A DNA stretch of 64,000 bases, from NCBI GenBank assembly GCA_040766725.1, contig JAXGPZ010000001.1:2414328-2478327 (forward strand), written 5' to 3'. Made by a program: the position numbers and the translations under genes. Under the pieces are notes generated by a model. That model saw only the letters and a program-made list of their open reading frames with translations. It was not told where the DNA came from and did not search any database. The DNA comes from Anaerolineae bacterium. GTDB taxonomy: Bacteria; Chloroflexota; Anaerolineae; UBA1429. This document shows, one piece after another, positions 4,795 to 51,635 of this stretch. Every line of letters starts with the position of its first letter. Within the stretch, counting starts at the first letter, position 1.

Positions 4795-4839
4795 GCCGTG
4801 GCGGCCGGGCTGGCGTACGCACCTCTTCAGGAGTCGGCG

Positions 4840-5974: not shown

Positions 5975-6604
5975 ATGATGTTGCGAAGCCGATCCGTCCT
6001 TGGTGCGACGCTGGCCCTGCTGGTGATCGCGCTGCTGACCGTCACGCCGGCGCTGGCCGCAGAGCCGCCCAACGCGCCCCCCGAGCCAGCGCAGATGCGC
6101 CTTGGCCCCCTCAACGAGCTGCCCATGCGGGCCTGGGAGCGCCTCCGTCTGTGGCTGGGGCTGGGCGCTGAGGGCCCTGGGCTGCGCCTGGGGCTGCTGT
6201 GGCGCCATGGCGCCGAGGGCGAGGCCTGGGGGCCGCGTGCTGGCGAGGGCGCCTGGCAGGTCGAACGCCCCGTCGTCGAGCCGCAGTTCATCGACGCGGA
6301 TGGCGATGGCGTCTGCGACCGGTGCGGGCGGGTGCACGACGGCATCTGCCCGGGAGATGGCGATGGCGAGCCCGACCGCCTGCGAGAGCGGGATCGGGAT
6401 GGCGCCGGCGATGGCCAGCAGCAAGAGCAGGCTCAGCAGCAAGAGCAGGCCCAGCTGCAAGAGCAGGCTCAGCAGCAAGAGCAGGTCCAGCTGCAAGAGC
6501 AGGCTCAGCAGCAGGAGCAGACCCAGCAAGGCGCCGGGCAGCCCTCTGGCGCCCAGAATGGCGGCGGCGACAGGCAAGGGGGGCAAGGCACAGGCGGGCG
6601 CTAG
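5975..6604 (+). CDS. Secreted hypothetical protein with an Asp/Cys-rich segment and a Q/E-rich hexapeptide repeat (QQEQAQ x6)
   Basis: AAAGGAG RBS. Signal peptide MMLRSRSVLGATLALLVIALLTVTPALA. The DADGDGVCDRCGRVHDGICPGDGDGE segment comes next, then an 18-nt tandem repeat encoding QQEQAQ units. Confidence 0.55.
   Translation: MMLRSRSVLGATLALLVIALLTVTPALAAEPPNAPPEPAQMRLGPLNELPMRAWERLRLWLGLGAEGPGLRLGLLWRHGAEGEAWGPRAGEGAWQVERPVVEPQFIDADGDGVCDRCGRVHDGICPGDGDGEPDRLRERDRDGAGDGQQQEQAQQQEQAQLQEQAQQQEQVQLQEQAQQQEQTQQGAGQPSGAQNGGGDRQGGQGTGGR
6418..6525 (+). repeat. Six tandem 18-nt units (cagcaagagcaggctcag and variants) encoding the QQEQAQ repeat
   Basis: Read directly in the sequence. The units differ only at 1-3 positions. 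Confidence 0.8.
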
Positions 6605-6835
6605 CGCCCCACGCCGCTGACGTTCCACGCGCAGAGGGCTGCCACCGTGGCGGCCCTCTGCGTCGACGTGAGCCGGCGCGAGTTCTGCGCTATGATGGCC
6701 CTCGAGGCGGCGAGGCGTTCAGAGCCAGGGGCAGCAGCCGCAGCGCCGGCGCCAGATGAGAAGGAGCGAGTCTGTCTCCACCATGGGCCAGCAACCGTCA
6801 TACAGGGTAGAGTCCGCGCGCGTCGAGGGGACGGC

Positions 6836-7348
6836 ATGAGCGCTGGCCCTGGCGCCCGAGCACACGAGGCGCTCGAGGCGCTGTATCGCGACCATGCCGA
6901 GCCGCTGCTCAACTATCTGTATCGGCTGTTGGGGAGCCGCAGCGAGGCCGAAGAGGCCCTGCAAGACACGTTCGTCAAGGCCCGTGGCGCGCTGGGCAGG
7001 TTGCCGGCCGATGCCAACCACCGGGCGTGGCTCTACCGCATCGCCACCAACACCGCCACCGACCGGCTGCGGCGTCGCCGGCTGATCCGCTGGCTGCCGC
7101 TGCTCGAGACTGACGGCGCCGACAGTGCGCTCGATCGGCCCGAGGCCGCTGCGCTGGAACGCGCCGACGTGGGCCGCGCGCTGCGGCGGCTGTCGCCGCG
7201 CGATCGGCAGGTGCTGTGGCTCTATAGCGTCGCTGGCTATGACACCGCCGAGATCGCCAACATGCTCGGCATCAGCCGGGCGGCGGCCAAGAAGCGGGTG
7301 GCGCGGGCCCGAGAGCGCTTTGGGCGCGCCTACCAGGGTGAGGAGTGA
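6836..7348 (+). CDS. ECF (sigma-24-type) RNA polymerase sigma factor
   Basis: Regions 2 and 4 are recognisable (LYRDHAEPLLNYLYRLLG, YRIATNTATDRLRRR, YDTAEIANMLGISRAAAKKRVARARE). GAGGGGA RBS before ATG 6836. Confidence 0.8.
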   Translation: MSAGPGARAHEALEALYRDHAEPLLNYLYRLLGSRSEAEEALQDTFVKARGALGRLPADANHRAWLYRIATNTATDRLRRRRLIRWLPLLETDGADSALDRPEAAALERADVGRALRRLSPRDRQVLWLYSVAGYDTAEIANMLGISRAAAKKRVARARERFGRAYQGEE

Positions 7349-7349
7349 G

Positions 7350-8327
7350 ATGAACTGCCGGCAGTCTCGCCGATTGTTGGCCATTCACCGCGAGCTGGGG
7401 GCTCGCGAGCGGGCGGCCGTCGATGCCCACGTCGCCTCGTGCGAGGCCTGCGCGGGGCTGTGGCGCGCCTATCAGGCGCAAGACCGCGCGCTGGCGGCCC
7501 TGCCGCGCATCGCCCCGCCAGCGCGCCCCCCGCGAGCCTCTGCCGTAAGCGGGCCGCGGGCGGCAACGGTGCGACGGGGCTATGCGCTGGCGCTGGCCGC
7601 GGCGCTGTTGCTGGCCGGGCTGGGCGTCACGGCGCGCGTGTCGGCCAGCGCCCTGCCCGGCGAGCCGCTCTATGGCGTCAAGCGGGCGGTCGAGGCGGTG
7701 CGCCAGGCGTTAGTCACCGGCGATGCCGCGCGGCAGGCGCTCGACGGGGCGCTGGCCGAGCGACGCCGCTTTGAGGCCCGCGAGCTGCAGCGCCTGGGGC
7801 GCACGGCCGAGGTCGAGTTCGATGGCATCGTCGAAGACACCGCCGACGGCGAGTGGACGGTGGCCGGGGTGCGCATCCAGGTGCCGCCCGCGGTGCTGGC
7901 CGCGCCCGCGCCGCTGGGGCAGGCGGTGTGGGTGCGGGCGCGCGTCACGGCCGGGCGGTTCGTGGCGCTGCAGGTCAGCCCGCGCGAGGCGGCGTCTGCC
8001 CCGGCCGAGCCGCCCGCCTCGCTGCCGGGCCAGGCGCCCGCGCCGGACGTGGGCCCGCAGCCGGGCGCCGCTGGCCAGCCTCAACAGGGCGCGCCGGCTG
8101 GCCCCGAGTCTACGCAAACGCCCCAGGCTGAACCGCTGCCCCAGCAGCCCGCCGCGGGGCCAACCGCGGCGCCGCGCTCGGGCGACGGGCCGGGGCCCAT
8201 GTCGACGGCCACGCCTGCCAGCCAGGGCGAGCAGCAGGGCGGACCCGCAGGCGGGCCCACGGCCGCGGCCACCCCGCGACAGCCCGGCGGCAGCGGCCCG
8301 GGCGCGGGCACCGGCTCGCAACGCTGA
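7350..8327 (+). CDS. Anti-sigma factor (zf-HC2 HxxxCxxC) with one TM helix and a long Pro/Gln/Ala-rich extracytoplasmic tail
   Basis: HVASCEAC motif and TM segment YALALAAALLLAGLGV. Its ATG is 1 nt after the sigma-factor stop (GTGAGATG), so the two genes are translationally coupled. Confidence 0.7.
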   Translation: MNCRQSRRLLAIHRELGARERAAVDAHVASCEACAGLWRAYQAQDRALAALPRIAPPARPPRASAVSGPRAATVRRGYALALAAALLLAGLGVTARVSASALPGEPLYGVKRAVEAVRQALVTGDAARQALDGALAERRRFEARELQRLGRTAEVEFDGIVEDTADGEWTVAGVRIQVPPAVLAAPAPLGQAVWVRARVTAGRFVALQVSPREAASAPAEPPASLPGQAPAPDVGPQPGAAGQPQQGAPAGPESTQTPQAEPLPQQPAAGPTAAPRSGDGPGPMSTATPASQGEQQGGPAGGPTAAATPRQPGGSGPGAGTGSQR

Positions 8328-8477
8328 GCTGGGCTGTGGCGAGCGTTCACGCCGCCGGTTGAGCCCTGACGCGCGAGGCCGGACGCAGCGCCTGGCAACC
8401 CAGGCCAGCGGCTCCGCGCGCAAGAGGACGAGGCGCGCCTTGCGGCGCGCCTCGTGTGTGCATCCCAGCGTCGACGA

Positions 8478-10364
8478 TCACTGGGTGGGCTGCAGCTTGG
8501 ACCACATCAGCAGTTGATCGCGGAGCCAGTAGCCGCCCGCGGTGTAGGGATCGTGGCAGCTTGGCCAGCCGCTCCAGTAGGTGGTGTTCATAGGCACCTG
8601 GATGACCGTCTGGATGAGCGGCACGATGGGCAGCTCGGGCAGCCAGATGGCGAGCATCTGCTCCCACAGCGGCATCACGCCGGGATCATCAGGCGGCAGC
8701 TTGGCCATCTCGTCGAGGATGTCGCTGAACTCTTTGTTGTCCCAGCGGAAGAAGCCGATGTTGGCGCGCTCGCCAGTGGGCTTCAAGTTCATCTGCTGGA
8801 AGCGGTAGAAGGTGGCGTGCGGGTCGTTCATGGCGCCGCCGATGCCAAACATAAAGATCTTGGCATCGCCCAGGTAGATGCGGTCGGCAAAGTCAGCGGG
8901 CAGCAAGAAGGTCGCGTCAAAGCCGGCGCGGCGCAACTGCTCGGTGACGATGGGCACCGAGGGCGTCAACGAGGGATGCTGCGGGTAGGTGATGATCTCG
9001 AACGAGAAGGTCTTGCCCGCCGAGTCAGCCCAGAAGCCATCGGCATTCTTCTTGTAGCCCTTGGACGTCATGATGGCGTCCACCTTGGACTGGTTCTGCT
9101 CGAGCGTGTTGTACTGCTCGAGCAGCGGCGCCGCGGCATCAAAGTACTTTTTCAGTCCGCCATAGTCGGGGATGGGCAGGCTGGTGACCTGGCTGTAGCC
9201 GTTGAACGCCAGGTTGACGATCTGCTGGCGATCGATGGAGTAGCTGACGGCCCAGCGGATGTCTTTGTCGTTGAACGGCGGCTCGGAGCAGTTGAACCCG
9301 ACATAGACCGGCCACCAGTCGATAAAGCCGTAGGGCGGCTCATCGCAGAAGGTGACGACCTGCGGGTTCTGGCTGTTGACGAGGCGCATGTTGGTGGGCG
9401 TCATCGAGAACGCCATCTCCAGCTCGTTGTTCATCAGCATCTGCGCCTGAGTGATCTCGCTCATGGCGGGCAGCACGATGATGCGCTCGATCTTGGGCAT
9501 GTCGCGAAAGCCGGTCTCGGCGCCCCACCAGCTGTCGCGCAGGTCCCACACCTTTTGCTCCACCGAGGTGGCCACCAGCTTGTAGGGGCCGGTGCCGAGC
9601 GGCCAACCCTTGGCCGGATCATAGTTGGTGAAGGTGAGGGGATCCTTGTCCTTCCAGACGTGCTCGGCCACAAACACCAGGCCGAGCGAGCCGCGGTAGG
9701 TGAGATAGTCCCAGATAAAGCGCGGCGAGGGCATGTTGAAGGTGATCTTGACCGTGAGGGGGTCTACCACCTCGATCGACTTGCAGTACTTTTCCACGTC
9801 CATGCCATAGGTAAGCTCCTTCTTACCCTTGAGCATGTTCAGGGTAAAGGCCACATCCTCGGCATCGAACGCCTCGCCATCGCTCCACTTGACGTCGGGA
9901 CGGATCTTGATGGTCGCCTCGGTGAAATCGGCGTTGTACTCGTGGCCCTCGGCCTGCCAGTTGTAGTAGTCGCCGCCGATCATGTTGTAGACAAAGAGGC
10001 CCTCGCCGCCGATGTGGTGAATGCCGCCACGCGAGATGCCCGTGACGTACGGGTTGAACATCTCGACGTCGGTAAAGCCACCCACCATCTCGCCGCCCAT
10101 GCCGGCAGCGATCCAGGTGCGGTTGCGCGGCACCTCGGCGATGCCGCCCGTTGGCTTGGTGGGCTCGACCACCTTTTCGATGACGACGGTCTCTTTGACG
10201 ACCTTTTCGACGACCTTGGGAGTGCCCTCAACGATGACGGTCTCTTTGACGACCTTCTCGACGACTTTTTCAACGGTCTCTGGCTGGCACGCGGCCAACA
10301 GACTGGCGGCTGCGACCGCAGCGCTGCCCTTGAGCACGGCACGACGGGTGATTCTCCTGCTCAT
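8478..10364 (-). CDS. ABC transporter substrate-binding lipoprotein, family 5 (Opp/Dpp-like; peptide or oligosaccharide)
   Basis: TAT-like SRRITRRAVLKG and lipobox LLAAC. VVEKVVKETVIVEGTPKVVEKVV linker. Family-5 SBP body. AGGAGCAGAAG RBS. Confidence 0.85.
   Translation of the reverse strand: MSRRITRRAVLKGSAAVAAASLLAACQPETVEKVVEKVVKETVIVEGTPKVVEKVVKETVVIEKVVEPTKPTGGIAEVPRNRTWIAAGMGGEMVGGFTDVEMFNPYVTGISRGGIHHIGGEGLFVYNMIGGDYYNWQAEGHEYNADFTEATIKIRPDVKWSDGEAFDAEDVAFTLNMLKGKKELTYGMDVEKYCKSIEVVDPLTVKITFNMPSPRFIWDYLTYRGSLGLVFVAEHVWKDKDPLTFTNYDPAKGWPLGTGPYKLVATSVEQKVWDLRDSWWGAETGFRDMPKIERIIVLPAMSEITQAQMLMNNELEMAFSMTPTNMRLVNSQNPQVVTFCDEPPYGFIDWWPVYVGFNCSEPPFNDKDIRWAVSYSIDRQQIVNLAFNGYSQVTSLPIPDYGGLKKYFDAAAPLLEQYNTLEQNQSKVDAIMTSKGYKKNADGFWADSAGKTFSFEIITYPQHPSLTPSVPIVTEQLRRAGFDATFLLPADFADRIYLGDAKIFMFGIGGAMNDPHATFYRFQQMNLKPTGERANIGFFRWDNKEFSDILDEMAKLPPDDPGVMPLWEQMLAIWLPELPIVPLIQTVIQVPMNTTYWSGWPSCHDPYTAGGYWLRDQLLMWSKLQPTQ
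10140..10270 (-). repeat. Copy 1 of a dispersed coding repeat encoding the SBP linker KETVIVEGTPKVVEKVV (also at 19440..19540 + and 51170..51310 -)
   Basis: All three SBP genes share a ~45-nt core (gagaccgtcatcgtcgagggcacNcccaaggtcgtcgagaaggtNgtcgag) at roughly 85-90% identity, flanked by gtcgtcgagaag-type units. Confidence 0.7.
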
Positions 10365-10551
10365 CTTCTGCTCCTGTGCGAATGTGAACGCCGGCCCCAG
10401 GCCGTTGCGTTCATGAGCCCATCGACCTACACGACCTGCGCCCTGTCAGCATGGCAGGGTGCGTCAGCCGGCCGAGCTCTTGGTGGCTGGTCACCTCCTT
10501 TGCAGCCACAGCTCACACCGCGGCGGCCCGTGGACGGGGCGCCGCACACGC

Positions 10552-11583
10552 TCAGGCGCCGATATACAGCGCCGAAACGTCCTCTGGCGCCACCACGGGC
10601 GCGTCACGATAGAGATAGCAGGCCACGGCGCGGTTGGCGCTGGCCGCATAGAGCGGCGGCGTGGCCGCGCGGCAGATATCCATCACCTGCGGGCAGCGCG
10701 GCGCAAAGGGGCAGCCCTGCGTCGTCGAGTGCTGGCCGGCCGTGCTGGCCGATACGCGCACCTCGGCCCAGCGTTTGGTGGGGTCGGGCAGCGGAATGGA
10801 GCCCACCAGCAACTGGGTGTAGGGGTGCAAGGGGGCCTTGATCACCGGCTCGACGCTGCCCACCTCGACCATAGCGCCGCTGTACATCATCAGGATGCTG
10901 GTGCACACCTGGTAGGCGGTCGTCAGATCGTGGGTGATGTAGATGATGGCGATGTCGCGCTGATCGTGGGCGTTGAGCAGGCTCTCGAGGATGCTGGCGC
11001 GCAGCGAGGCGTCGACCATTGAGACGGGCTCGTCGGCGACGATGATGCTGGGGTTGAGCATCAGGGCGCGGGCCACCATCACGCGCTGGCGCTGCCCGCC
11101 CGAGAGCTGGTGCGGGTAGCGGCCCAGGGTCTCGTCGACGCGCAGCCCCACCACCTGCAGGGCCTGCTCGATCATCGTGCGGCGCTCGGCGGCGGTCCTA
11201 TGCGGCTCAAAGCGCCTGATGGGCACCTCGAGCGCGTGGTCGACGCGGTAGAACGGGTTGTAGACCTCAAAGGGGTCCTGGAAGATGGCCTGCACGTCAC
11301 GGCGAAAGGCCATGCGCTCGTCGCCCTGGATTGCGGCCGTGGGGCGGCCGCGGTAGAACACCTCGCCCGAGGTGGGCGAGATCAGGCCCAGCAGCAGGCG
11401 CGAGAGCGTGGTCTTGCCGCTGCCGCTCTCGCCGGCGATGGCCACGATGGACGGCGGCTGCGCGTGAATGGTCAGCGAGGCCTGGTTGACCGCGACGGTG
11501 GTGGCGCCTTTCTTGCCGATGGTGCCGCGGCTGGCAAACACCTTGGTGACATTGCGCGCCTCGAGCAGGGGTATGGCGGTCAT
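10552..11583 (-). CDS. ABC transporter ATP-binding protein (OppF/DppF-like)
   Basis: Walker A GESGSGKT, signature LSGGQRQR, Walker B IIVADEP. The ATG at 11583 overlaps the upstream stop (ATGA). Confidence 0.85.
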   Translation of the reverse strand: MTAIPLLEARNVTKVFASRGTIGKKGATTVAVNQASLTIHAQPPSIVAIAGESGSGKTTLSRLLLGLISPTSGEVFYRGRPTAAIQGDERMAFRRDVQAIFQDPFEVYNPFYRVDHALEVPIRRFEPHRTAAERRTMIEQALQVVGLRVDETLGRYPHQLSGGQRQRVMVARALMLNPSIIVADEPVSMVDASLRASILESLLNAHDQRDIAIIYITHDLTTAYQVCTSILMMYSGAMVEVGSVEPVIKAPLHPYTQLLVGSIPLPDPTKRWAEVRVSASTAGQHSTTQGCPFAPRCPQVMDICRAATPPLYAASANRAVACYLYRDAPVVAPEDVSALYIGA

Positions 11584-12551
11584 GCGGCGGCTCCTGCATG
11601 GCATGGGCAGGCCACCCAGCGACCGGGCAGCACTTCGGTGAGCACCTGGGGCGTCGTCCAGCAATCTCCCACGGCGTCGGGACAACGCGCGTGAAAGGCG
11701 CAGCCGGGCGGCGCATTGAGCAGCGAGGGCGTTTGCCCGGGGATGCCCTTGAACACGGCCTTGGCATCGAGCGAGGGCAGCGTGTTGATGAGCAGGCGGG
11801 TGTAGGGGTGCAGCGGCAGGCGAAAGACGTCTGTCACCGGCCCCAGCTCCACCAGGCGGCCGGCATACATGATGCCGATTTTGTCGACGAACTGGGCCAT
11901 CAGGCCCATATCGTGCCCCACGAGGATGATCGAGGCCTCGAGCTGACGCTGGATGCGCCCGAGCGTCTCCATCACCTGGCGTTGCACCACCACGTCGAGG
12001 GCGCTGGTGGGCTCGTCGGCGATGATCACCTTGGGCCGCAGGCAAATGCCCATGGCGATGCAGACGCGCTGCTTCATGCCGCCGCTCAGCTCGTGTGGGA
12101 ACATGCCCAGCACGTTGGGCCGCAGGCCCACCGCCTCGATGAGCGTGGCGGTGTGCTCGGCCAGGCGCGCTCGATTCATCGTACGATCGTGCGCATAGAT
12201 GGTGTCGTAAAAGTGATCGCGCACGCGCATCACCGGGTTGAGCGAGTTCATGGCCGCCTGGGGGATCAGCGAGATGGCCGAGCCGCGCATGCGGCGCATC
12301 TGCTCGGGAGAGAGCGCCATCAGATCGACGCCATCGAGCAGCACCTGCCCGCCACGGATGCGCCCGGGCGGCGTCACCATGCGCAAGAGCGCCAGCACGG
12401 TGGTCGACTTGCCCGAGCCGCTCTCGCCCACCAGCCCCATGCGCTCGCTGCGGGCGAGGTCAAAGGTGACGTCCTCGGCCGCCTTGATGGGGCCGGCGTC
12501 GGTTTCGTATTGCACGCAGAGATTGCGCACCTGTAACACTGAAGCGCTCAT
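11580..12551 (-). CDS. ABC transporter ATP-binding protein (OppD/DppD-like)
   Basis: GESGSGKS, LSGGMKQR, IIADEPTSALD. Confidence 0.85.
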   Translation of the reverse strand: MSASVLQVRNLCVQYETDAGPIKAAEDVTFDLARSERMGLVGESGSGKSTTVLALLRMVTPPGRIRGGQVLLDGVDLMALSPEQMRRMRGSAISLIPQAAMNSLNPVMRVRDHFYDTIYAHDRTMNRARLAEHTATLIEAVGLRPNVLGMFPHELSGGMKQRVCIAMGICLRPKVIIADEPTSALDVVVQRQVMETLGRIQRQLEASIILVGHDMGLMAQFVDKIGIMYAGRLVELGPVTDVFRLPLHPYTRLLINTLPSLDAKAVFKGIPGQTPSLLNAPPGCAFHARCPDAVGDCWTTPQVLTEVLPGRWVACPCHAGAAA

Positions 12552-13396
12552 CTGGCCCTCCGCAGACGCGGGTTGGCAAGCTCATCGAGGCCTGAAGAGA
12601 TGGCGAATAGCGCGGCGAACACGTAAAGGATGGCGATGATGGGCGGCGCCCACCACCACCACATGCCGCGCAGCAGCGCCCCATAGTAGTTGCACCAGAA
12701 GATGGTCATGCCCAGGGTGGGCTCGGTTTGCGGGCCCAGGCCCATGGCCTCGAGGCCGATGGCGGCCAGCAGAGCGCCGGCCACCGCGCCCACCAGCGTG
12801 GCCGCCAGATAGGGCAGCAGGTTGGGCAGCAGCTCTTGGACGATGATCTGCCAGTCGTTCATGCCCGAGAGGCGCGCGATCTCGACATAGGAGCGCTCGC
12901 GCATCGAGAGCACCTGCGAGCGGATGGTGCGGGCCGGGCGCATCCACGAGAGGGCAGCCACGATCAGCGCCAGGTTCCTGACGTTGAGCACCTCTTTGAT
13001 GACCGAGGCGATGACCACCAGGACGGCCAGCGCCGGGATGGTCAGCGCCACGTCGGCGGCGGTGCTGATGACCGAATCGACAAAGCCGCCGAAATAGCCG
13101 GCGATGAACCCGAGGATGGTGCCCACCACCAGGCCGATGATGCCGGCGGTGAGGCCGATCTCAAAGGTGTAGAGGGAGCCCACCAGCAGGTTGGGCAAGA
13201 GCTCGCGGCCCACCGAGTCGCTCCCTAGAGGGAGCCCTGCCGAGGGGCTCTGATCGGCCATGGCCGAGATGGGACGGGCTTTGGTGACGTCGACAAAGGT
13301 CGGGCCGATGATCCAGAACAGCAACAGCATGGCGAACATGGCCACGCCGACGAGCAAGAGCGGGTTGCGGCGTACATAGCCCCAGGTGCGTGACAT
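12548..13396 (-). CDS. ABC transporter permease (OppC/DppC-like)
   Basis: Six TM helices, EAA-like loop. Start overlaps neighbouring genes by 4 nt. Confidence 0.85.
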   Translation of the reverse strand: MSRTWGYVRRNPLLLVGVAMFAMLLLFWIIGPTFVDVTKARPISAMADQSPSAGLPLGSDSVGRELLPNLLVGSLYTFEIGLTAGIIGLVVGTILGFIAGYFGGFVDSVISTAADVALTIPALAVLVVIASVIKEVLNVRNLALIVAALSWMRPARTIRSQVLSMRERSYVEIARLSGMNDWQIIVQELLPNLLPYLAATLVGAVAGALLAAIGLEAMGLGPQTEPTLGMTIFWCNYYGALLRGMWWWWAPPIIAILYVFAALFAISSGLDELANPRLRRAR

Positions 13397-13410
13397 GCGT
13401 GCTGCCCCCT

Positions 13411-14418
13411 CTATTTGCGGGTGTAACGGATGCGCGGATCGAGGAACGGGTAGACCAGGTCGAGCAGGAGCGTGGCCACGCCCACCGCAAGGATCACAAA
13501 GAACACCACTCCATAGATCATGAAATAGTCAAAGCCGGTGATGGCCCGATAGAGCACCGAGCCCATGCCCGGGTAGCGAAAGATCACCTCGACGAGCAGC
13601 GAGCCCGAGAGGATGGTGCCGGCAGACAACGCCAGGCCGGTGGTCTGGGGGAGGATGGCGTTGCGCATGGCGTACCGGAAAAAGATGCGTCGCGGAGAGA
13701 GCCCACGGGCCTCGGCGAGCATGACATAGTCCTCGCCGAGGGTGGTGACCATCATGCCGCGCATCGACAGCGCCCAAAAGCCCACGCCGGCCACCACCAT
13801 CGAGGCGGCCGGCAGGATGGCGTGGTGGACCACGTCCCAGGCGAACTTGAGGGAGAAGGTGGGTACGGTGCCATATTGAGAGCCGCCGCCCAGCGGCAGC
13901 CATTTGAACTTGAAGGCAAAGATGTACATCATCACGAGGCCGAGGATGTAGTAGGGCACCGAGGACATCATCAAGAAGGGGGTCGAGACCCAGTGGACGA
14001 TCTTGGGCGTGCGCGGCCAGCCCAGCAGCGCCCCCACCAGGCTGCCCACGGCAAAGGCCAACAGCGTCGAGACAAGGAGCAGGCCCACGGTCCACGGCAC
14101 GGCGCGCATGATGATTTCAAAGACGGTGGCGGGGTACATGGCGATCGAGTAGTTGAAATCAAAGCGCAGCATGTCGAACATATAGTTGAGATACTGCTTC
14201 CAGAGAGGCTGATCGAGGCCGAACTTGGCGCGGTAGGCCTCGACCATCTCATCGAGGCCCTCGGTGTTGATGCCACCGGTGGCGGCCAGGTTGCCGAGGC
14301 GCTGAGCCACAGGGTCGCGATCGGGCGCCAACCTGGGCAGGAAAAAGATCAACGACGTGCCCACCCAGATGACGAGTAGAAAGAGCAGGACCCGGCGAAC
14401 GATATACCTCCAGCTCAT
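13411..14418 (-). CDS. ABC transporter permease (OppB/DppB-like)
   Basis: MSWRYIVRRVLLFLLVIWV... GGGGGGTG RBS before ATG 14418. Confidence 0.85.
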   Translation of the reverse strand: MSWRYIVRRVLLFLLVIWVGTSLIFFLPRLAPDRDPVAQRLGNLAATGGINTEGLDEMVEAYRAKFGLDQPLWKQYLNYMFDMLRFDFNYSIAMYPATVFEIIMRAVPWTVGLLLVSTLLAFAVGSLVGALLGWPRTPKIVHWVSTPFLMMSSVPYYILGLVMMYIFAFKFKWLPLGGGSQYGTVPTFSLKFAWDVVHHAILPAASMVVAGVGFWALSMRGMMVTTLGEDYVMLAEARGLSPRRIFFRYAMRNAILPQTTGLALSAGTILSGSLLVEVIFRYPGMGSVLYRAITGFDYFMIYGVVFFVILAVGVATLLLDLVYPFLDPRIRYTRK

Positions 14419-14690
14419 CACACCCCCCTTGGTCGATGTGGCGGGCGGCAAAGGTGCGTCGCGGGCCATGACGGCGAGCTTTGCGGTCCGTACGGGAGCA
14501 TTATGACGGGGCCGATTATCGTTGTCAAGTGGTATTTTGGTGGACGCTATCGGGCCGCCGACCCCGAGGCGCGCGACGCTATTCGGGCTGGGCGGGCGCG
14601 CACGCGGCGCGGCGAGCGGTTGACGTCATGCCCGGCATCGCCGACCATCGCCTGGCCCTGTCTCAACGCCGGCCACCCATGAGGGGCGCT

Positions 14691-14948
14691 ATGCACGAAT
14701 CGCCAGACGATGGGTACAACTCGGTCGGACAAGAGGCGTTCGAGGTCACGATCGCGCCGCTGCAAGCCGCTCAGGCCCCGGGCGCCAACAGCGCGCGCCA
14801 ACTGCCGGCTGCGTGCCTGGCGCGCAGCGCCGCGCTGGACCGCGCCGGGCCAGGCCTGCGGGCCGTCGTCGAGGTCAACCCCGAGGCGCTGAGCGATATG
14901 CCCAGCGCCCCTTGGCGGCCAGTGCCGCTGGCTAGGGTCAGCGCCTAG
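14691..14948 (+). pseudogene. N-terminal remnant (~85 aa) of an amidase (Asp-tRNA/Glu-tRNA amidotransferase-like amidase-signature family)
   Basis: FEVTIAPLQAA...ARSAALDRAGPGLRAVVEVNPEAL matches the usual amidase N-terminus pattern (LTIAELaaa...ARIEAlnP.LNAvvevnpeAl). It stops 45 nt before the convergent cassette. Confidence 0.4.
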
Positions 14949-14993
14949 TGCAGCGCTGGCTCTTGCCAGCCCTCGTGGCGCAACGGCAGACCA

Positions 14994-15335
14994 TCATGCC
15001 GACGGCTCTAGGGCTGCCTGCAAAGCCGCTTTGAGCTGGTCGGCGCTGGGTGGCTTGCCGGCAAAGCGCACCATTTCGCCAATGAGCACGGCCGGCGCAA
15101 AGGTGGCGCCGCGCGTCTCAAAGAGGGTCATGATCTGCCTGTGCTCCGCCGCCGTGAGCCCACCCTGTCCCGCGAGGATGGCACTCAGTGAGGCGTGGTG
15201 CACCTCGATGGTGAGCCCCAGTTGGCTGCATGCCTCCTTGAGGTTGCCTGCCAACACTCGGTCAAGACGCGCCAGATGCGGCATGCAGCAAGCGCCCGAG
15301 ACCGTGACGACGCGTAGTTTGCTGTCGTGTTCCAT
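14994..15335 (-). CDS. Thioredoxin_3-family small redox protein (redox-active-disulfide-protein-2-like, Cys-Cys variant, ArsD-reminiscent)
   Basis: 113 aa. KLRVVTVSGACCMPHLARLD...GLTIEVHH...APAVLIGEMV matches the thioredoxin-fold pattern that accompanies DUF318 permeases. A vicinal CC replaces the usual CxxC. Confidence 0.5.
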   Translation of the reverse strand: MEHDSKLRVVTVSGACCMPHLARLDRVLAGNLKEACSQLGLTIEVHHASLSAILAGQGGLTAAEHRQIMTLFETRGATFAPAVLIGEMVRFAGKPPSADQLKAALQAALEPSA

Positions 15336-15359
15336 GAACCGCTTCTCTCCTTCGAGTGA

Positions 15360-16283
15360 CTAGTGCGCAATCCAGTTCACGGCATAGCCGGTGCACATGG
15401 CCCCAAGGACCATGGCCAGGCCAAAGCCAATGACGTACTTTTTTCTGAACAGCTTGGTCAGCATCAGAATCTCTGGCGGGCTGATAGTTGTGGCGGTGAT
15501 CAGAAAGGCGAGCACCGCCCCCTGACTGAGACCCTTGAGCGAAAGCGAGTAGATGATCGGCACCACCGCCGCAGCGTTGACATAGAGCGGAACGCCGATC
15601 AGGGCGGCAATCGGCACGGCCAACAGCCCGGCGCCTCCAGCGTACCGGACGATGATCTCTTCCGGCACAAAGCCATAGATCAGGGCGCCGACCGCGCTGC
15701 TGATGACAATAATCGGCAGCAGGCTGCGGGCAAAGCCCAGGGTATAGTCCCAGGCGCGGGCCGCCTTGGCTCTAAAGCCATCCTCGAGCACGAGATCGAG
15801 CGCGCTCCCGTCAGCACTGGGATCAGCTGCGCGGGGCGGGCCACTGGCCACCTTGATCTGGTTCTGCCAGCCGGCCCGTTGCGCCAGCGTGCCAAAGACC
15901 AGCGCCAGCAGCCCCCCGGCGGTCAGAAAGACCAGGGCAGAGCGCACGCCAAAGAGCGGCGCCAGAATAGGCAACGCAATCTCCACTGGATATGGCGATG
16001 ACAACAGGAAGGTGGTCATCACCCCGATGGGAATCCCCGCCCTGGCCATAGTGGCCAACACCGGGACAGTCGAGCAGGAGCAGAATGGCGTCACATAGCC
16101 CAGGCCCAGCGCGATGCCTTGGCCGAGCAAGCCTTTTCTGCCTGCGAGGCTCTTGCGCAGTGTTTCCGGAGAGATATACTCCATCAGCAGGCCTGAAATA
16201 AAGGTGACGATCAAGAACAGCGGTATCAGTTCGGCCAAGATGATCAGGAAAAAGCGTCCGGAGCTGAGCAGCGTCACTAGCAT
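15360..16283 (-). CDS. DUF318 / ArsP-like permease with the TPFCSCS motif
   Basis: Eight predicted TM segments. YVTPFCSCSTVPVL matches the TPFcSCS signature of organoarsenical efflux permease ArsP and other DUF318 permeases. Confidence 0.7.
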   Translation of the reverse strand: MLVTLLSSGRFFLIILAELIPLFLIVTFISGLLMEYISPETLRKSLAGRKGLLGQGIALGLGYVTPFCSCSTVPVLATMARAGIPIGVMTTFLLSSPYPVEIALPILAPLFGVRSALVFLTAGGLLALVFGTLAQRAGWQNQIKVASGPPRAADPSADGSALDLVLEDGFRAKAARAWDYTLGFARSLLPIIVISSAVGALIYGFVPEEIIVRYAGGAGLLAVPIAALIGVPLYVNAAAVVPIIYSLSLKGLSQGAVLAFLITATTISPPEILMLTKLFRKKYVIGFGLAMVLGAMCTGYAVNWIAH

Positions 16284-16286
16284 GGC

Positions 16287-16637
16287 CTATGTCTCACTTT
16301 CCCACAAAGCCTTTTCGAGATAGGGCAGCACTTCTCGCCAGGTCTGGACGGCCACCTGGTAGGCTGCTTCGCCTTTGGGCGTCAGCTCAAAGACTCTGCG
16401 TGGCCGCCCGTCTTGGACTCTTTCGTCTATTTGTGCATATTCGCCCTCCAGCAGCGCTTTGAGAACGGGATATATCGTTCCATAGGCAGGCGTGCAGCAC
16501 CCTGCAGTGAACTCGGAGAGTTTCCCCAACAGAGCATATCCATGGGTTGGCTCGTCATGGAGCGTGCGCAGGATAAAGAACCGAGAGAGACTCATGTTGA
16601 TGAGCGACTTCCAATAGTCCGGGCTTTCGAGTTGCAC
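16287..16637 (-). CDS. PadR-family transcriptional regulator
   Basis: ILRTLHDEPTHGYALL...RRVFELTPKG is the winged-helix PadR signature. GTG start at 16637 has a GGGAGG RBS 6 nt upstream. The alternative ATG at 16595 gives 102 aa. Confidence 0.75.
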   Translation of the reverse strand: MQLESPDYWKSLINMSLSRFFILRTLHDEPTHGYALLGKLSEFTAGCCTPAYGTIYPVLKALLEGEYAQIDERVQDGRPRRVFELTPKGEAAYQVAVQTWREVLPYLEKALWESET

Positions 16638-16699
16638 CGTGAGCCTCCCGCATCCAGGATCTATATGCTGACCTTCTATATATCGAACATCGGCATATT

Positions 16700-17098
16700 A
16701 GCACCTGACGAAGATCGCGTCAAGACCCCTGGGGGCCGATCGGCCATGAATGCAGCGATGGCGTTGGGCCGTGGAGCGCCTTCAGACGGTGTCTGAGCGT
16801 GCTGGCGTGGCTGTGGCACGCCTCAGGGTTGGGCTGATGACCAGCGGACGCGCCCTGCCCGCGCCGCGCTCACCTGGGAGTGCCTATGTTGTAGCACCTA
16901 CGGCGGGTGCACGCCGCCGGCGAGGTGCGCGGCCTGTCGCTGGGGCTGACCTTTATGGGAACGGCCTTTAGCGAGCCGGCGCTGATTCGGCTGGCGTATG
17001 GCTTTGAGCAGCACACGGGCGCGCGCCGCCCGCCACGCTACCTGCCCACTTTGAGGCTGCCCCAGCCCGCTTGCGGCGGCGGCCTCGCTGGGCCCTAG
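16700..17098 (+). pseudogene. C-terminal remnant of the same amidase, with frameshift and in-frame TAG
   Basis: Frame 1 gives TPGGRSAMNAAMALG, an echo of the GGSSGGSAAAVAAG amidase signature. Frame 2 gives GLSLGLTFMGTAFSEPALIRLAYGFEQHTG, the amidase C-terminal GLPvGLQliG..fdE..Llr.A.a.E motif, preceded by a TAG at 16892. Confidence 0.4.
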
Positions 17099-17727
17099 TT
17101 CACGATGCGCACTTGCTCGAGGGTGACCGATACGTCCGTCGTCCCCACCTGAGCGATCGACTTGATGTAGCCCTCAAAGGCCACCAGTTGGCCCTTGCTG
17201 AGCTCGAGCGCGCTCTCTTTGGGCAGGTCGAACCTGATGGCGAACAGGCCACCCTTGTCCAGTCTGAGCGACAGCTCGTGCGCCACAGCGTCGCCTACGG
17301 GAAACTGGACGTTCTCGGGGTCGAGCGTGACCAGGCCGCCGGGCGTCACCTCGATGACCCTGCCCTGCCAGGCCACCCGCATGTCGATGATGCTATCGAC
17401 GTACACGGGCCATTGCAGCTCGGTCGCGCTCTTGTGCCGAGCCCACAGCTCGGCCGTGGTGAGCGCATAGTTGATGGTGGGCGTGGGCACCGGCGTGGGC
17501 GTGGGCACGGGTGTGGGCGTGGGCACCGGCGTGCGCGTGGGGCGCGGCGTACGGGTCGGGCGCGGCGTGGCCACTTCGGCCAGGCGCTCGACGATGGCCT
17601 GCGCTGGCTCGCTCTCGCGCTGACCATAGACCACGCCCGACAGAAACCCCACCAGCAGCGCTGCCAGCAGCGCGGGAACGATGACATACCAGCGATTGAG
17701 CACCGGCCGTGGCTCTCTAGGTTCCAT
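17095..17727 (-). CDS. Membrane-anchored hypothetical protein with a Pro/Thr-rich linker
   Basis: 210 aa from ATG 17727 (GGGGGAGAG RBS). N-terminal TM helix, then a TPRPTRTPVPTPTPVPTPTPVPTPT linker, then a ~120-aa C-terminal domain of unknown function. Confidence 0.6.
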   Translation of the reverse strand: MEPREPRPVLNRWYVIVPALLAALLVGFLSGVVYGQRESEPAQAIVERLAEVATPRPTRTPRPTRTPVPTPTPVPTPTPVPTPTINYALTTAELWARHKSATELQWPVYVDSIIDMRVAWQGRVIEVTPGGLVTLDPENVQFPVGDAVAHELSLRLDKGGLFAIRFDLPKESALELSKGQLVAFEGYIKSIAQVGTTDVSVTLEQVRIVN

Positions 17728-17880
17728 CGCCACTCTCCCCCACCCAGACTGGCTTTCAGTATGGACGCAGGGCGGCCGCCGCACAAGTGCGCCTGGCCAG
17801 GGGCGCCAGGCGCGCGGTGGTCCAGGCCCGCGCATCGATGGCGGCCTCAGCGAGGCCCGCGCAGGCCGGTCATTGACGCC

Positions 17881-18981
17881 CTAGAAGGTGGTCTGCAGCT
17901 TGATCGTCTTGCCCTCGCGCGCCGCCTCATAACAGCGCGTCATGATCTCGATCACGTGCCGCGCGTGCTCGGCGCTGGCCACCACGGGCTGCGCGGGGTC
18001 GAGGATGCACTCGATCAGGTTCTCGACGCCGGCGGGCAGGCCCCAGGGCTTGGTGTCCTTGGGAAAGCTGAGGTCGGTCCAGCCATACACCTCTCGTTCG
18101 CGGTCGTCGCGCCACAGCGAGAGCTTGTCGAGCGAGCCATAGATGCCGTTGACGGCGATGGTGCCATCAGAGCCAAAGATCTGCATGGCGGGCTGGCTGG
18201 TCTGCTCGCGCGTGGCGCGCACGCAAAAGGTCGAGTCGACAAAGCCAAAGCGGGCATCGCCAAAGTCGAGCAGCAGGAGCGTGTTGTCATCGACCTCGAC
18301 ATCGATCACCTTGCCCTTGTAGGGCCCAGCCCTGACGACGCGCTGCGGCCAGGAGATGCCCGACATGACGGCCACGCTTTTGGCGGGCCCCAGCAGGCCG
18401 GTGACGGTGTGCAGGCCATAGACGCCCATATCGAGCACCGGGCCAGCGCCCTGTTTGTAGAACCAGGTGGGGTCTGTCTCCCATTCCTCGTCGGGCCACG
18501 AGCCGGGGCCGCCGTGCGAATTGTGCGACAGCAGCCACGACACCTTGCCGATGGCGCCCTCGCGCAGCAACTGGGCGATCTTTTGGTTGATCGGGTCGAG
18601 CATGGTGCAGGCGGCTGCGCCCAGTTTCAGCGAGCGCTGGCGCGCCTCGTCGATCAGGTGCGTGGCCTCGGCCACCGACCCGGCCATGGACTTTTCGCTG
18701 TACACATGCTTGCCGGCGCGCAGGGCCTTGAGGTTGACCTCATAGTGCGACTGGATGTTGGTGGTGTCGACGAGCAGGTCGATCCCCGACCTGGCCAGCA
18801 TCTCGTCCAGGTCGGTGTAGACCTGCGGCACGCCGAGTTTGGCGGCCAGGCTTGCGGCGCGGCCCGGAACAGAGTCGCACACGGCGACAAACTCGGCCTT
18901 GGCGAGCGCCTTGATGCCCGGGCCATAGCTGCCGTTAGCGATGACCCCACAACCGACCAGCCCAACCTTTACCTTTTCCAT
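17881..18981 (-). CDS. Gfo/Idh/MocA-family oxidoreductase
   Basis: MEKVKVGLVGCGVIANGSYG... AAGGAGTGGAG RBS before ATG 18981. Confidence 0.8.
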   Translation of the reverse strand: MEKVKVGLVGCGVIANGSYGPGIKALAKAEFVAVCDSVPGRAASLAAKLGVPQVYTDLDEMLARSGIDLLVDTTNIQSHYEVNLKALRAGKHVYSEKSMAGSVAEATHLIDEARQRSLKLGAAACTMLDPINQKIAQLLREGAIGKVSWLLSHNSHGGPGSWPDEEWETDPTWFYKQGAGPVLDMGVYGLHTVTGLLGPAKSVAVMSGISWPQRVVRAGPYKGKVIDVEVDDNTLLLLDFGDARFGFVDSTFCVRATREQTSQPAMQIFGSDGTIAVNGIYGSLDKLSLWRDDREREVYGWTDLSFPKDTKPWGLPAGVENLIECILDPAQPVVASAEHARHVIEIMTRCYEAAREGKTIKLQTTF

Positions 18982-19151
18982 CTGCTCCACTCCTTTGTTG
19001 ACGGCCACCATGCCGCGGCTGCGCTCATTGTACTCGTCTAGCCAGGGCGCAGCCAGCGGCGCAGGCTCTGGCTGGCCGGTGGCGCGGGGTTGCGGCCAGA
19101 GGCCTGGCTCCAGATCGTGAGGCAATAGCTGCGGATTCCGGCGCTAGAGCA

Positions 19152-19181
19152 TTGACAAACGTCGCATAATCCAGGTAGAAT
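19152..19181 (+). promoter_or_regulatory. Sigma-70-type promoter (TTGACA, 18-nt spacer, TAGAAT) for the sugar ABC operon
   Basis: Read in the sequence, ~165 nt upstream of the SBP start in a divergent intergenic region. Confidence 0.4.
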
Positions 19182-19348
19182 GGCGCCAAGAGGACGGTTT
19201 GTGGCCAACACGAAAGGGGGTGTATCGCCTCATATCGCCTTTGGCGGATCGGCACTCCGAGCTGGGGCCCTATGAGCCGCGGCACTGGCGAGTTGGTGTT
19301 GGCGCCGGGCGCCGCAATGGAGCTAGCGTTCTGCGAGGAGAGGGTGGT

Positions 19349-20788
19349 ATGAACAAGCTGACACGTCGCGATTTTCTGCGGGCGGGCGAGCTGGCGGCAG
19401 CGGCCTGGGTTTTGTCGGCCTGTGCTCCGGCCGCGCCCCAAGTGATCAAAGAGGTCGTCAAGGAAACGGTCATCGTCGAGGGCACCCCCAAGGTCGTCGA
19501 GAAGGTCGTCGAGAAGGTTGTTGAGAAGACGGTGGTGGTCGAGGCGGCCGCCAAAGAGCCCATCACGCTGGAATGGTGGCCTGGCTGGCCCGGCAACTAT
19601 ATGCTGGCCATCGCCAAGCTGTTTGAGGATGCCAACCCCGGCATCAAGCTGAATGCCGTGCTCAACTATCCCGAGAAGCAGGCAGTGCTGGCGGCCGTTG
19701 CGGCCGGCACGACCCCCGATCTGATCGCCGACATTCCCTACATGGAGCTGATCGTCCGCGACGTCTTTTTAGAGATCGACGATCGCCTCACCGAGTTCCC
19801 CGATCTGGCGATCAAGGACGGCGACATTCCTGAAGCCCTGTGGGAGGTGTTCGCCTGGGAAGGCAAACATTATGGCATCCCCAGCGTAGACACGGCCGGC
19901 CGGCAGGGGTTGGGCATCAACGCGCGCGTTGCCGAAGAGGCGGGGCTGGACCCGGAGAACCCGCCGCGCACGTGGACCGAGGCGTTCGAGTGGCACAAGA
20001 AGATGACCACGTACGACGACGCCGGCAACCTGAACGTGCTGGGCTTTGACCCGATGGCCGAGCGCACCGACGCCTGCACCGACGGCGACCCCTGGATGTG
20101 GCCGCACATGTGGGGCTTTGCCTACATCAAGGACAACGTCTATGACATCGACCGCGCAGAGACGGTCGAGTTCCTGACGGTCATCAAGCGCTTTGCCGAG
20201 GACGTGGGCCCGGAAAAGATCGATGGCCTGAACACGGCCTTTAGCGGCATGAGCCGTGGCCCCTTTGGCCAGGGCAAGGTGGGCATGCGCATCACCTACC
20301 CGTCGGGGCCTGCGGGCGTGTATCGCATCAACCCCAAGGACAAGTACGTCTTTACCTGGGTGCCGATGCCAGACAACCGCCGCGATGTGACCATGCAGAC
20401 GGCCGGCGGCCACGCGGGCATGATCATGAAGGCGTCCAAGCATCCTGACGAGGCCTTCAAGCTGGCCGTGTTCCTCACGCAGGACGCGGCCTGCAACGTG
20501 CTGTTCAAAGAGGTCGGCTGGATTGGCCCCCGCCTGTCGTGGCAGGCCAAGGCCGATCTGAGCAGCTATCCTGACCATGTGGCCTCGGCGATCAAGTACT
20601 TTACCGACTCGATGAAGAACGCCGACGAGGTGTGGTGGAACAACGACCCTATCGAGGGCATCACGGCCTCAGAGTGGGAGCGTGTGTTCCAGGGCGTGCG
20701 CCATGGCGAGATCACGCCAGAGGATGGCGCCCGGCAGATGCAGGAGAACCTGACCAAGGAACTCGAGCAGATGTTGGAAGCCCGCTAA
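19349..20788 (+). CDS. Sugar ABC transporter substrate-binding lipoprotein (family 1)
   Basis: TAT motif MNKLTRRDFLRAG, lipobox LSAC, KEVVKETVIVEGTPKVVEKVVEKVVEK linker. GAGGAGAGGG RBS. Confidence 0.85.
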   Translation: MNKLTRRDFLRAGELAAAAWVLSACAPAAPQVIKEVVKETVIVEGTPKVVEKVVEKVVEKTVVVEAAAKEPITLEWWPGWPGNYMLAIAKLFEDANPGIKLNAVLNYPEKQAVLAAVAAGTTPDLIADIPYMELIVRDVFLEIDDRLTEFPDLAIKDGDIPEALWEVFAWEGKHYGIPSVDTAGRQGLGINARVAEEAGLDPENPPRTWTEAFEWHKKMTTYDDAGNLNVLGFDPMAERTDACTDGDPWMWPHMWGFAYIKDNVYDIDRAETVEFLTVIKRFAEDVGPEKIDGLNTAFSGMSRGPFGQGKVGMRITYPSGPAGVYRINPKDKYVFTWVPMPDNRRDVTMQTAGGHAGMIMKASKHPDEAFKLAVFLTQDAACNVLFKEVGWIGPRLSWQAKADLSSYPDHVASAIKYFTDSMKNADEVWWNNDPIEGITASEWERVFQGVRHGEITPEDGARQMQENLTKELEQMLEAR

Positions 20789-20873
20789 GAGAGGGATCAG
20801 GGTCAGGGCAGCAGCGTTGCCTGCTGCCCTGACCTGCGATGCATCTTGAGCGACCAAGCGAGAGGTGAACGCC

Positions 20874-21767
20874 ATGACGAACGTGGCTCGTCGTGAAGCG
20901 CGGCGCACTCTGCAGGGCCTGGCCTTTGCCTCGCCCTGGGTCATCGGTTTTCTGGCCTTTACGATCTACCCACTGCTGGCCTCGACATACTATAGCCTGA
21001 CGCGCTATGACGTGATTCGGCCGCCCAAGTACGTCGGCCTGGAGAACTATGTCGAGATCTTTTCCTCTGACCCGATCTTTCGCCTGGCCCTGGTCAACAC
21101 GCTGTACTTTGTCATCATCGGCGTCCCTGCCGCCTTTATCACGGCCTGGCTGGTGGCCAACCTGCTGAACAACGAGATGTGGGGGCGCCCCGTGTGGCGC
21201 ACCATCTTTTTTCTGCCATCGATCACGCCCATTGTGGCCAGCGTCATGGTGTGGCTGTGGATCTATAACACGCAGTTCGGCCTGATCAACGGCGCGCTGA
21301 TGGCGCGCGGGCTCAAGGTGATCCCCTTCCTCAGCAGCCCCAAGCTGGCCAAGCCCTCGCTGATTCTGGTGCAGTGTTGGGCGCAGGGCAGCTCGATCGT
21401 GATTTTTCTGGCCGCGCTGCAAGATGTGCCCCGAGAGCTGTATGAGGCGGCGACCATCGATGGCGCCAACAGCTGGCGCCGCTTTTGGAGCATCACTATT
21501 CCCATGTGCACGCCGGTGATGCTCTTTGTGCTGTTGACAGAGCTCATCGGCACGTTCCAGTCTTTCTCGCTGCCGTGGCTGCTCACCGAGGGCGGCCCCA
21601 ACTATGCCACCGAGCTCTATAGCCTGTACCTGTTCAGGAACGCCTTTGTGTTCTTCAAGATGGGCTATGCCTCGGCGCTCTCGTGGATTCTGTTCGTCGT
21701 CATCGGCCTGTTCACAGTGGCTATCTTTCGCAGCTCGGCACGCTGGGTCTACTACCGCAGTGAGTAA
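20874..21767 (+). CDS. Sugar ABC transporter permease (MalF/UgpA-like)
   Basis: Six TM helices and an EAA loop (LYEAATIDGANSWRRFWSITIP). ATG 20874 is preceded by GAGAGG. The track start 20865 is GTG. Confidence 0.85.
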   Translation: MTNVARREARRTLQGLAFASPWVIGFLAFTIYPLLASTYYSLTRYDVIRPPKYVGLENYVEIFSSDPIFRLALVNTLYFVIIGVPAAFITAWLVANLLNNEMWGRPVWRTIFFLPSITPIVASVMVWLWIYNTQFGLINGALMARGLKVIPFLSSPKLAKPSLILVQCWAQGSSIVIFLAALQDVPRELYEAATIDGANSWRRFWSITIPMCTPVMLFVLLTELIGTFQSFSLPWLLTEGGPNYATELYSLYLFRNAFVFFKMGYASALSWILFVVIGLFTVAIFRSSARWVYYRSE

Positions 21768-46992: not shown

Positions 46993-47004
46993 GCCTTTGC
47001 TCCT

Positions 47005-48003: not shown

Positions 48004-48046
48004 GGCAGTCTCCTGATGCGTGGTAGATATGGCGCGAGGCAGACCG

Positions 48047-48895: not shown

Positions 48896-48943
48896 AGGGC
48901 ACTCCTCCTCCAAAGCGACCGGCTGACGGGTCGAGGCTTGGAC

Positions 48944-51572: not shown

Positions 51573-51635
51573 AAACCACCATCGCGAGAGGGCGTTCCTG
51601 CTCAATTGCGGCCACGATGAGGCTATCACCCGGAC

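Follow-up and report, generated by a model that had tools for sequence, protein, structure and literature searches.

A Pam-type amidase pseudogene interrupted by a PadR/ArsP_1 permease/thioredoxin-fold operon, probably acquired from elsewhere, in an Anaerolineae genome

How an intact three-gene operon comes to lie, in the opposite orientation, between two fragments of what looks like a single gene is the question raised by a locus in the genome of an Anaerolineae bacterium (assembly GCA_040766725.1, contig JAXGPZ010000001.1). The locus occupies positions 14691-17098 of the window, by which is meant the whole 64,000-nt stretch that was analysed (contig positions 2,414,328 to 2,478,327, forward strand). 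On the plus strand, two short stretches resemble the two ends of an amidase gene; between them, a minus-strand block, here called the cassette, encodes a PadR-family regulator, an ArsP_1/DUF318 permease and a small thioredoxin-fold (Trx-like) protein. A preliminary description, made from the letters of the sequence, had read this arrangement as an amidase gene whose middle had been replaced by the cassette. Homology at both ends indicates that the two fragments are derived from one Pam-type amidase-signature gene, and the locus is probably an ordinary evolutionary scar, in which a pseudogene has been interrupted by an acquired operon, probably from elsewhere.

The single origin of the two fragments is supported by several independent comparisons. 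In a sequence search of PDB chains, the translation of the 5' remnant matches residues 10-62 of Pam from Stenotrophomonas maltophilia (PDB 1M21/1M22; PF01425) with E 4.6e-7, and that of the 3' remnant matches residues 432-492 of the 503 in 1M21 with E 1.8e-12; the regions corresponding to the N-terminal helix and to the C-terminal strand and helix of this enzyme are thus kept. A family hidden Markov model (HMM) of 546 columns was built from 13 full-length amidase relatives, themselves obtained by a HMMER search seeded with the partial amidase P0001. This profile aligns the 5' remnant with columns 45-101 (i-E 6e-11) and the 3' remnant with columns 495-544 (i-E 4e-18), both on the plus strand (coordinates in Table 1), and no further amidase match was found with it on either strand. 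When 15 full-length amidases were used as tblastn queries, most of them matched both remnants, with order and strand never varying, and three matched the C-terminal piece alone. The best matches of both remnants belong to the same Pam-type subfamily and are largely the same proteins (P0124, P0170, P0179 and P0251). The C-terminal piece is 72% identical to P0001, with its conserved residues well kept, and neither remnant has an internal stop across its homologous stretch. Read in their own frames, the remnants have a GC content at third codon positions (GC3) of 0.84-0.86 (0.86 for the 5' remnant), like the host genes. The claim that the flanks come from one protein family, rather than from two different ones, is thereby upheld: both are of Pam type within PF01425, collinear and on the same strand. 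Pfam and NCBIfam searches of the raw flanking open reading frames (ORFs) reported no amidase, because the fragments are too short, and the concatenated remnants, used as the query of a word-indexed homologue search, retrieved two partial amidases only.

What survives of the amidase amounts to ~57 codons at the 5' end and ~50 codons at the 3' end. The absent part corresponds to columns 102-494 of the profile, or ~393 codons, so that ~1.18 kb is missing and not the ~750 nt first estimated; even if the two spacers that separate the remnants from the cassette (96 nt and ~167 nt) were both decayed amidase, the loss would be at least ~0.9 kb. According to the profile consensus, the absent part holds the catalytic Lys and the GSSSG serines of the Ser-cisSer signature. 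Compared with Pam, only ~20% of the gene is left, and neither the GGSS(G/S)GS signature nor the Ser-cisSer-Lys triad of a functional amidase is present; the gene is dead. The replacement of the middle of the amidase by an opposite-strand operon is therefore borne out, since the region of the catalytic Lys and GSSSG is gone and a complete operon stands there. A TAG and a frameshift had also been reported in the remnants. In-frame TAG codons can indeed be read at 14946-14948 and 16892-16894, and the frameshift, near 16905 in the C-terminal remnant, is possible only. In the ORF listing, read over 14400-17500, the translation of the 5' ORF contains FEVTIAPLQAA...VVEVNPEAL, and the 3' remnant is part of an ORF at 16907-17098 (+) whose translation contains GLSLGLTFMGTAFSEPALIRLAYGFEQHTGARRPPRYLPTL. 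The two ORFs, 14691-14948 and 16907-17098, should be annotated as remnants of one pseudogene; public gene calling lists an 85-aa protein for the 5' remnant (positions 3874-4131 of L001, equal to 14691-14948 of the window). The remnants adjoin the operon of a peptide ABC transporter, a position that fits a Pam-like, peptide-related role.

The cassette itself consists of three intact and tightly spaced genes, separated by 3 nt and ~23 nt, and their assignment in the preliminary description to the PadR, ArsP_1 permease and Thioredoxin_3-like families agrees with the Pfam matches, the last of them below cutoff. The regulator belongs to the PadR family (PF03551, 58.5 bits against a cutoff of 27) and is 70% identical to the PadR of another cassette locus, L038; its GCC(T/S) motif at residues 46-49 is kept even in an archaeal copy with 25% identity. 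The permease belongs to ArsP_1 (PF03773, 164.1 bits against a cutoff of 32.3, profile positions 8-293 of 294) and carries a Cys-Ser-Cys motif that is kept in 118 of 120 homologues. Its nearest NCBIfam families are SaoE and SO_0444, and it falls below the equivalog cutoffs of both (NF040736, 85.3 against 325; NF033936, 78.6 against 300). The Trx-like protein is related to PF13192, with 19.8 bits against a cutoff of 24.8, and to TIGR00412 (E 0.0095); all four of the homologues that were aligned match PF13192, the best at 6.5e-9. It has no CXXC motif and carries an invariant SGACC(M/S)P vicinal pair (C16-C17) instead. Relatedness to ArsD (PF06953) is weaker, with a Pfam match in two of the four homologues at 0.0019 or worse and E ~1 for PDB 3KGK; among PDB chains, MTH895 and ArsD are both weak matches (E 0.03 to 1).

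Upstream of padR lies a strikingly AT-rich stretch (16640-16700), which had been read both as the junction of the insertion and as the likely promoter and operator of the cassette. Its low GC was confirmed: with a 50-nt GC of 0.38, it is one of only three loci at or below this value in the 64 kb (the other two are 14144-14199, inside an Opp permease gene, and 56723-56798). The regulatory reading stood as well. In an alignment of the DNA upstream of padR from five cassette loci in four assemblies, TTGAC, the -10 box and a TCGATATAT core are invariant columns, with a TAnnAT -10 box 17-18 nt downstream of the -35 box and a repeated TCGATATATAG-like motif just past the -10 box, and a scan for promoter consensus independently chose the same promoter. 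In the five loci, the TCGATATATAG repeat sits between the -10 box and the start codon, which makes it a candidate PadR operator. The junction reading did not stand, because a stretch conserved in the cassettes of other organisms is no evidence of a junction: to judge by this conservation, the AT-rich stretch is the predicted promoter/operator of the cassette itself and not an integration scar. The sequence downstream of trx, by comparison with the other cassettes, showed no conservation, and neither a terminator nor significant RNA structure was found in it.

The edges of the replaced segment are less sharply defined than its content. The left spacer has no amidase similarity, no conservation among other cassettes and no significant RNA structure, and both spacers, when compared with the whole amidase profile, score within the range of shuffled DNA; the right spacer may be decayed amidase sequence. 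Of the amidase fragments described at 16700-17098, only the C-terminal piece (16913-17062) held. The proposed signature motif PGGRSAMNAAMALG (16727-16768) was rejected, as both a three-frame hmmsearch and frameshift-aware alignments (16640-16918 and 16724-16915) scored it at the level of shuffled sequence, and since 16724-16745 can be aligned with the sequence preceding the -35 box of other cassette copies, PGGRSAMNAAMALG is partly cassette DNA. Frameshift-aware pairwise alignments extended suggestively into 16725-16860, which was considered as the amidase 'GPEGIDAAL...LVAPT...VNGDH' region upstream of the C-terminal piece. This candidate was also rejected: when a profile of ~150 homologues, with frameshifts allowed, was aligned to 16640-16918 and compared with shuffled DNA, its score was reached in 38 of 150 and in 96 of 150 shuffles, and the profile alignment had no significance.

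With regard to the origin of the cassette, the same three-gene module is found in other Chloroflexota, and the permease/Trx pair also in archaea. A PadR (116-122 aa), a permease and a Trx-like protein (112-116 aa) follow one another with near-identical spacing in L038/L039, L040 and L109/L110, each time in a different neighbourhood. In L041 and L107, ArsR takes the place of PadR, and in L107 an LMWPc (ArsC-like) gene and ArsR adjoin the module, an arsenic-type context; in L111, a Bathyarchaeota contig, the order is permease, Trx, PadR, with PadR downstream rather than upstream. The nearest non-identical relatives of the permease, at 74-75% identity, are from Anaerolineae, with farther ones in Bellilinea, Smithella and Bathyarchaeota, and no close relatives of it were found in viral contigs and plasmids. 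Around the module in these other genomes, FmdE-like and TauE-family genes adjoin the permease/Trx pair in two unrelated contigs (L107, 1-2435; L110, 2727-4586), and a MoaA-like radical SAM gene occurs in L109 and L110. In L041, a second ArsP_1 gene lies downstream of the module (6426-7865), split into two ORFs of 255 and 134 aa and followed by DGC/Thioredoxin_3, thioredoxin and DsbD genes.

The comparison of composition that the preliminary description had called for sets the cassette apart from its flanks. The GC3 of the cassette genes is 0.77, 0.76 and 0.62, against 0.83-0.92 in the neighbouring genes, and the value for PadR (0.62) is the lowest among the genes called in the window. The permease is 75% identical to those of other Anaerolineae, whereas the flanking oxidoreductase reaches 64% and the Opp permease, beyond one sister species, 51%. 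As had been claimed, no insertion sequence (IS) or integrase accompanies the cassette: no integrase or transposase was found within ~10 kb, no tRNA genes at the cassette, no flanking direct or inverted repeats beyond chance and no Rfam families at the locus, and the block does not qualify as an IS, transposon, integron cassette or integrative island. It resembles, in this respect, genomic islets without a mobile element, in which the remnants of one gene likewise surround a compositionally different, self-sufficient operon, with no integrase, IS, att-like repeats or tRNA. Compared with such islets the locus has nothing distinctive, with ~1.2 kb of the target gene lost during or after the event. 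Scars of this kind, with pseudogene remnants around an acquired block of genes, are common, and the description of this one as rare was not sustained.

The remnant-cassette-remnant structure is present in eight assemblies, L001-L007, which share an identical permease, and L106, at 99.0-100% identity. These eight contigs come from at least seven samples, among them several SRA runs, GCA_002049745.1 and a JGI 'Soeholt' sample; the recurrence of one structure in all eight shows that it is not an artefact of assembly, nor a mutation private to one strain. The description of the insertion as recent was not supported, as the nearest relative of the cassette stands at 75% protein identity and every sampled strain has the arrangement. 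None of the strain copies has a disrupted cassette gene. In L007, the cassette genes have two differences, both synonymous, and non-coding sequence, which makes up 21% of the length, holds 8 of the 10 differences (binomial P ~1e-4), an excess that deserves little weight since several of them lie 30-80 nt from contig ends and L106 shows no such excess. In L106 (SRR28082821), V27M and I192V, both conservative, are the substitutions in the cassette, and one change falls in the remnants. When compared with the window over 8327-21682, this contig diverges by 0.1-0.2% at 8.3-17.8 kb, a segment that spans the Opp operon, the remnants, the cassette and a gene for a 210-aa protein, and by 2-3.5% from ~17.9 kb rightwards. 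The mosaic implies that homologous recombination moves the whole segment between strains, and its sharp boundary suggests a recent homologous exchange, or sweep, of the left segment.

Apart from these contigs, one close genome was found, L008 (metagenome-assembled genome Chloroflexota CTOTU19791), in which the Opp operon has 87% nucleotide identity (blastn block 8482-14528). Similarity ends at 14528, which is the -35 box of the promoter of this operon (L008 position 9891), and the genes upstream of the operon in L008 are flavodoxin-like, hydrolase and SDR genes, with neither amidase nor cassette. Furthermore, the SDR (4036-4796) and GFO (4826-5841) genes of the window are placed differently around the Opp operon in L008. 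Owing to this break in homology and the different placement of SDR and GFO, the neighbourhood appears to be a rearrangement hotspot. A search with the left flank (the Opp permease, in genome contigs) found one related species, without an amidase; with the right flank (the oxidoreductase, in metagenome contigs and in a search of 5.8 billion proteins), matches were at most 64% identical and had no neighbouring amidase.

Taken as a whole, the history and function model to which these observations lead, in which the amidase gene was destroyed and the three-gene block was acquired in place of its interior, is held with reasonable though not full confidence. A chromosomal Pam-type amidase would once have stood here, transcribed divergently from the Opp-type operon. 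An opposite-strand segment of at least 1.75 kb (14994 to ~16745), with its own predicted promoter and operator-like repeat, would have replaced the interior of the gene. Illegitimate recombination, with no mobile element involved, would have brought the block in from another Chloroflexota-like organism, and the amidase interior would have been lost in the same event or afterwards; the arrangement would then have become fixed in the population. Underneath this history lie direct observations, namely the similarity of the two ends to amidases, the genes that the block contains, a module and a promoter that are conserved elsewhere, the difference in composition, the lack of mobility genes and the recurrence in eight assemblies. 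We infer the order and the age of the events, because no relative with an intact amidase was found and the nearest species breaks synteny at this point.

Several points weigh against this history. An intact amidase adjoining either flank was absent from all 111 fetched loci, and the ancestral state is thus unobserved. The nearest species shows several rearrangements around the Opp operon, and something other than one insertion may have scrambled the locus. The nearest relative of the cassette is only 75% (permease), 70% (PadR) and 54% (Trx-like) identical, with no donor identified, and the comparison of permease with flanking-gene identities is tempered by the fact that protein families differ in evolutionary rate. 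The GC3 of the cassette lies within the range of the genes at 47-64 kb (0.70-0.78), so composition alone is no proof of foreign origin. Spacers of unassignable origin (96 nt and ~167 nt) lie on either side of the cassette. The Trx-like protein of the window is, taken alone, under the Pfam cutoff, with a single-sequence structure model of pLDDT 52, and both the substrate and the regulatory logic proposed below are deduced from motifs and family membership only.

Some of the same observations favour a different order of events, in which the amidase was already dead or mostly deleted, or the locus already rearranged, and the cassette came from the same genome or with a larger segment from a sister strain; there would then have been no one-step replacement, and not necessarily any transfer between species. 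The exact end of L008 synteny at 14528 together with the rearranged SDR and GFO genes, the recombination that the L106 mosaic reveals between strains, the unassignable spacers on both sides and the overlap in GC3 with the 47-64 kb genes would all suit such a course. However, a single gene interrupted in place is a better fit to remnants that are collinear, on the same strand, stop-free in their homologous stretches and still so well conserved in their residues (72% to P0001), and the GC3 of PadR remains the lowest in the window; we regard this order of events as unlikely, if worth keeping in view. That two paralogues were brought side by side would be conceivable at a rearrangement breakpoint, as amidase-signature genes are often present in several copies in bacteria, but both pieces have their best matches in one subfamily, they are oriented and ordered as one gene would be, and the 64-kb window contains no other amidase, which renders this explanation very improbable. 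Chance similarity or a chimeric assembly might be suspected from fragments so short that Pfam does not report them; given the E values in both the PDB and the family HMM searches, and junctions that are identical in eight independently assembled contigs from different sequencing runs, such an origin is hardly credible. The replacement of the amidase interior by an acquired operon is the history retained here, and it offers a clean example, from an uncultured Chloroflexota population of activated sludge, of an accessory operon that landed in a resident gene and destroyed it, with no mobile element to be recognised.

As a genome scar the locus is of little consequence, and the cassette is the more useful lead: its uncharacterised cysteine-pair PadR/permease/Trx module is the sole mildly novel element. 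All three proteins carry conserved cysteine pairs, and these motifs suggest that the cassette exports a metal or metalloid that binds thiols. ArsP, with which the permease family was founded, exports MAs(III) and trivalent roxarsone (PMC6205960), and SaoE and SO_0444, two metal efflux families that have a CSC motif in common, occur together with an unusual protein resembling thioredoxin (10.1101/2022.07.06.499078). The permease of the cassette shares the Pfam family ArsP_1 with ArsP of Campylobacter jejuni (TCDB Organo-Arsenical Exporter) and the most conserved feature of SaoE and SO_0444, Cys-Ser-Cys, and, as in the SaoE/SaoT pair, it has a small thioredoxin-like neighbour; it differs from these systems in its scores, which are far under the equivalog cutoffs, and in having PadR rather than ArsR as the regulator. 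The Trx-like protein is of the same small thioredoxin-fold type as ArsD (3KGK, PF06953) and MTH895/ArsE (1ILO, PF13192), is likewise encoded beside an exporter and has an N-terminal vicinal Cys-Cys pair like Cys12-Cys13 of ArsD. Nevertheless, the similarity is weak, and it has no third Cys like Cys18 of ArsD (+5), no CXXC and no ArsA ATPase partner.

An association of PadR with ArsP_1 has been noted earlier from genome context (PMC6016940), and in the literature searched on PadR no characterised PadR-type metalloid sensor was found. Like PadR, LmrR and the NCBIfam Rv3488 family, the regulator of the cassette is a one-domain winged-helix protein of ~110 aa, encoded by the first gene of the operon that it presumably represses, with an AT-rich repeated operator at the transcription start region. 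In contrast to PadR and LmrR, it has an invariant vicinal Cys pair, which points to a thiol-reactive compound or a metal as its ligand and not to phenolic acids or drugs. In the proposed mechanism, PadR would act at the TCGATATATAG repeats as the repressor of the operon to which it belongs, through Cys47-Cys48, until a thiol-binding ligand arrives, for which a trivalent arsenical, an organoarsenical or a soft metal are candidates; the thioredoxin-fold protein would bind or hand over this ligand through its Cys-Cys pair, and the permease would export it through Cys-Ser-Cys. Together, a PadR with an invariant cysteine pair, a permease with CSC and a thioredoxin-fold protein with CC make a candidate new sensor-export unit for soft metals or organoarsenicals. 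The bolder proposal that the block is an uncharacterised thiol-binding metal/metalloid sensing and export system, in which the cysteine pairs of PadR, the thioredoxin-fold protein and the permease serve as sensor, carrier and exporter, travelling among Chloroflexota with its own promoter and without a mobility gene, and that the near-identical 8-18 kb segment could reflect a recent gene-specific sweep in wastewater populations, is speculative and has rather little probability.

Table 1. Positions in the window of the amidase remnants, the cassette with its predicted control signals, the spacers and the neighbouring promoter
Feature	Position	Strand	Remarks
5' remnant of Pam-type peptide amidase	14691-14948	+	ORF from ATG to TAG; homology 14727-14897, profile columns 45-101
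Left spacer	14898-14993		96 nt, GC 0.71, unassignable origin
Thioredoxin-fold protein, 113 aa	14994-15335	-	Related to Thioredoxin_3/MTH895-ArsE, more weakly to ArsD
ArsP_1/DUF318 (UPF0718) permease, 307 aa	15360-16283	-	PFCSCS at residues 65-70
PadR-family regulator, 116 aa	16287-16637	-	GTG start; invariant vicinal Cys47-Cys48
Cassette regulatory region	16638-16745	-	Conserved in cassettes of four other loci
Ribosome-binding site GGGAGG	16649-16644	-	
Operator-like repeat	TCGATATATAG 16686-16676, TCAGCATATAG 16671-16661	-	
Predicted sigma-70-type promoter	-10 TAATAT 16700-16695; -35 TTGACG 16723-16718	-	
Short GATCGGCCCCCA stretch upstream of -35	within 16638-16745	-	
Right spacer	16746-16912		~167 nt, GC ~0.68, unassignable origin; TAG 16892-16894 in the frame of the 3' remnant
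3' remnant, same amidase	16913-17098	+	Homology 16913-17062, columns 495-544, sequence GLSLGLTFMGTAFSEPALIRLAYGFEQHTGARRPPRYLPTL; frame open to stop 17096-17098
Promoter of Opp-type peptide ABC transporter operon	14500-14528	-	Sigma-70-like TTGACA-17-CATAAT, 11/12 match; divergent from amidase remnant

Two minor observations concern the surroundings of the locus. The genes at 47000-64000 have a GC3 of 0.70-0.78, compared with 0.82-0.90 at 1-46 kb, and may form another compositionally distinct block. On the minus strand at 17095-17727, the gene for the 210-aa protein, at its stop, shares 4 nt with the end of the amidase remnant ORF; in the protein, a long linker of Pro/Thr repeats (PTRTPRPTRTPVPTPTPVPTPTPVPTPT) lies between a membrane anchor at the N-terminus and a C-terminal domain without a family match.

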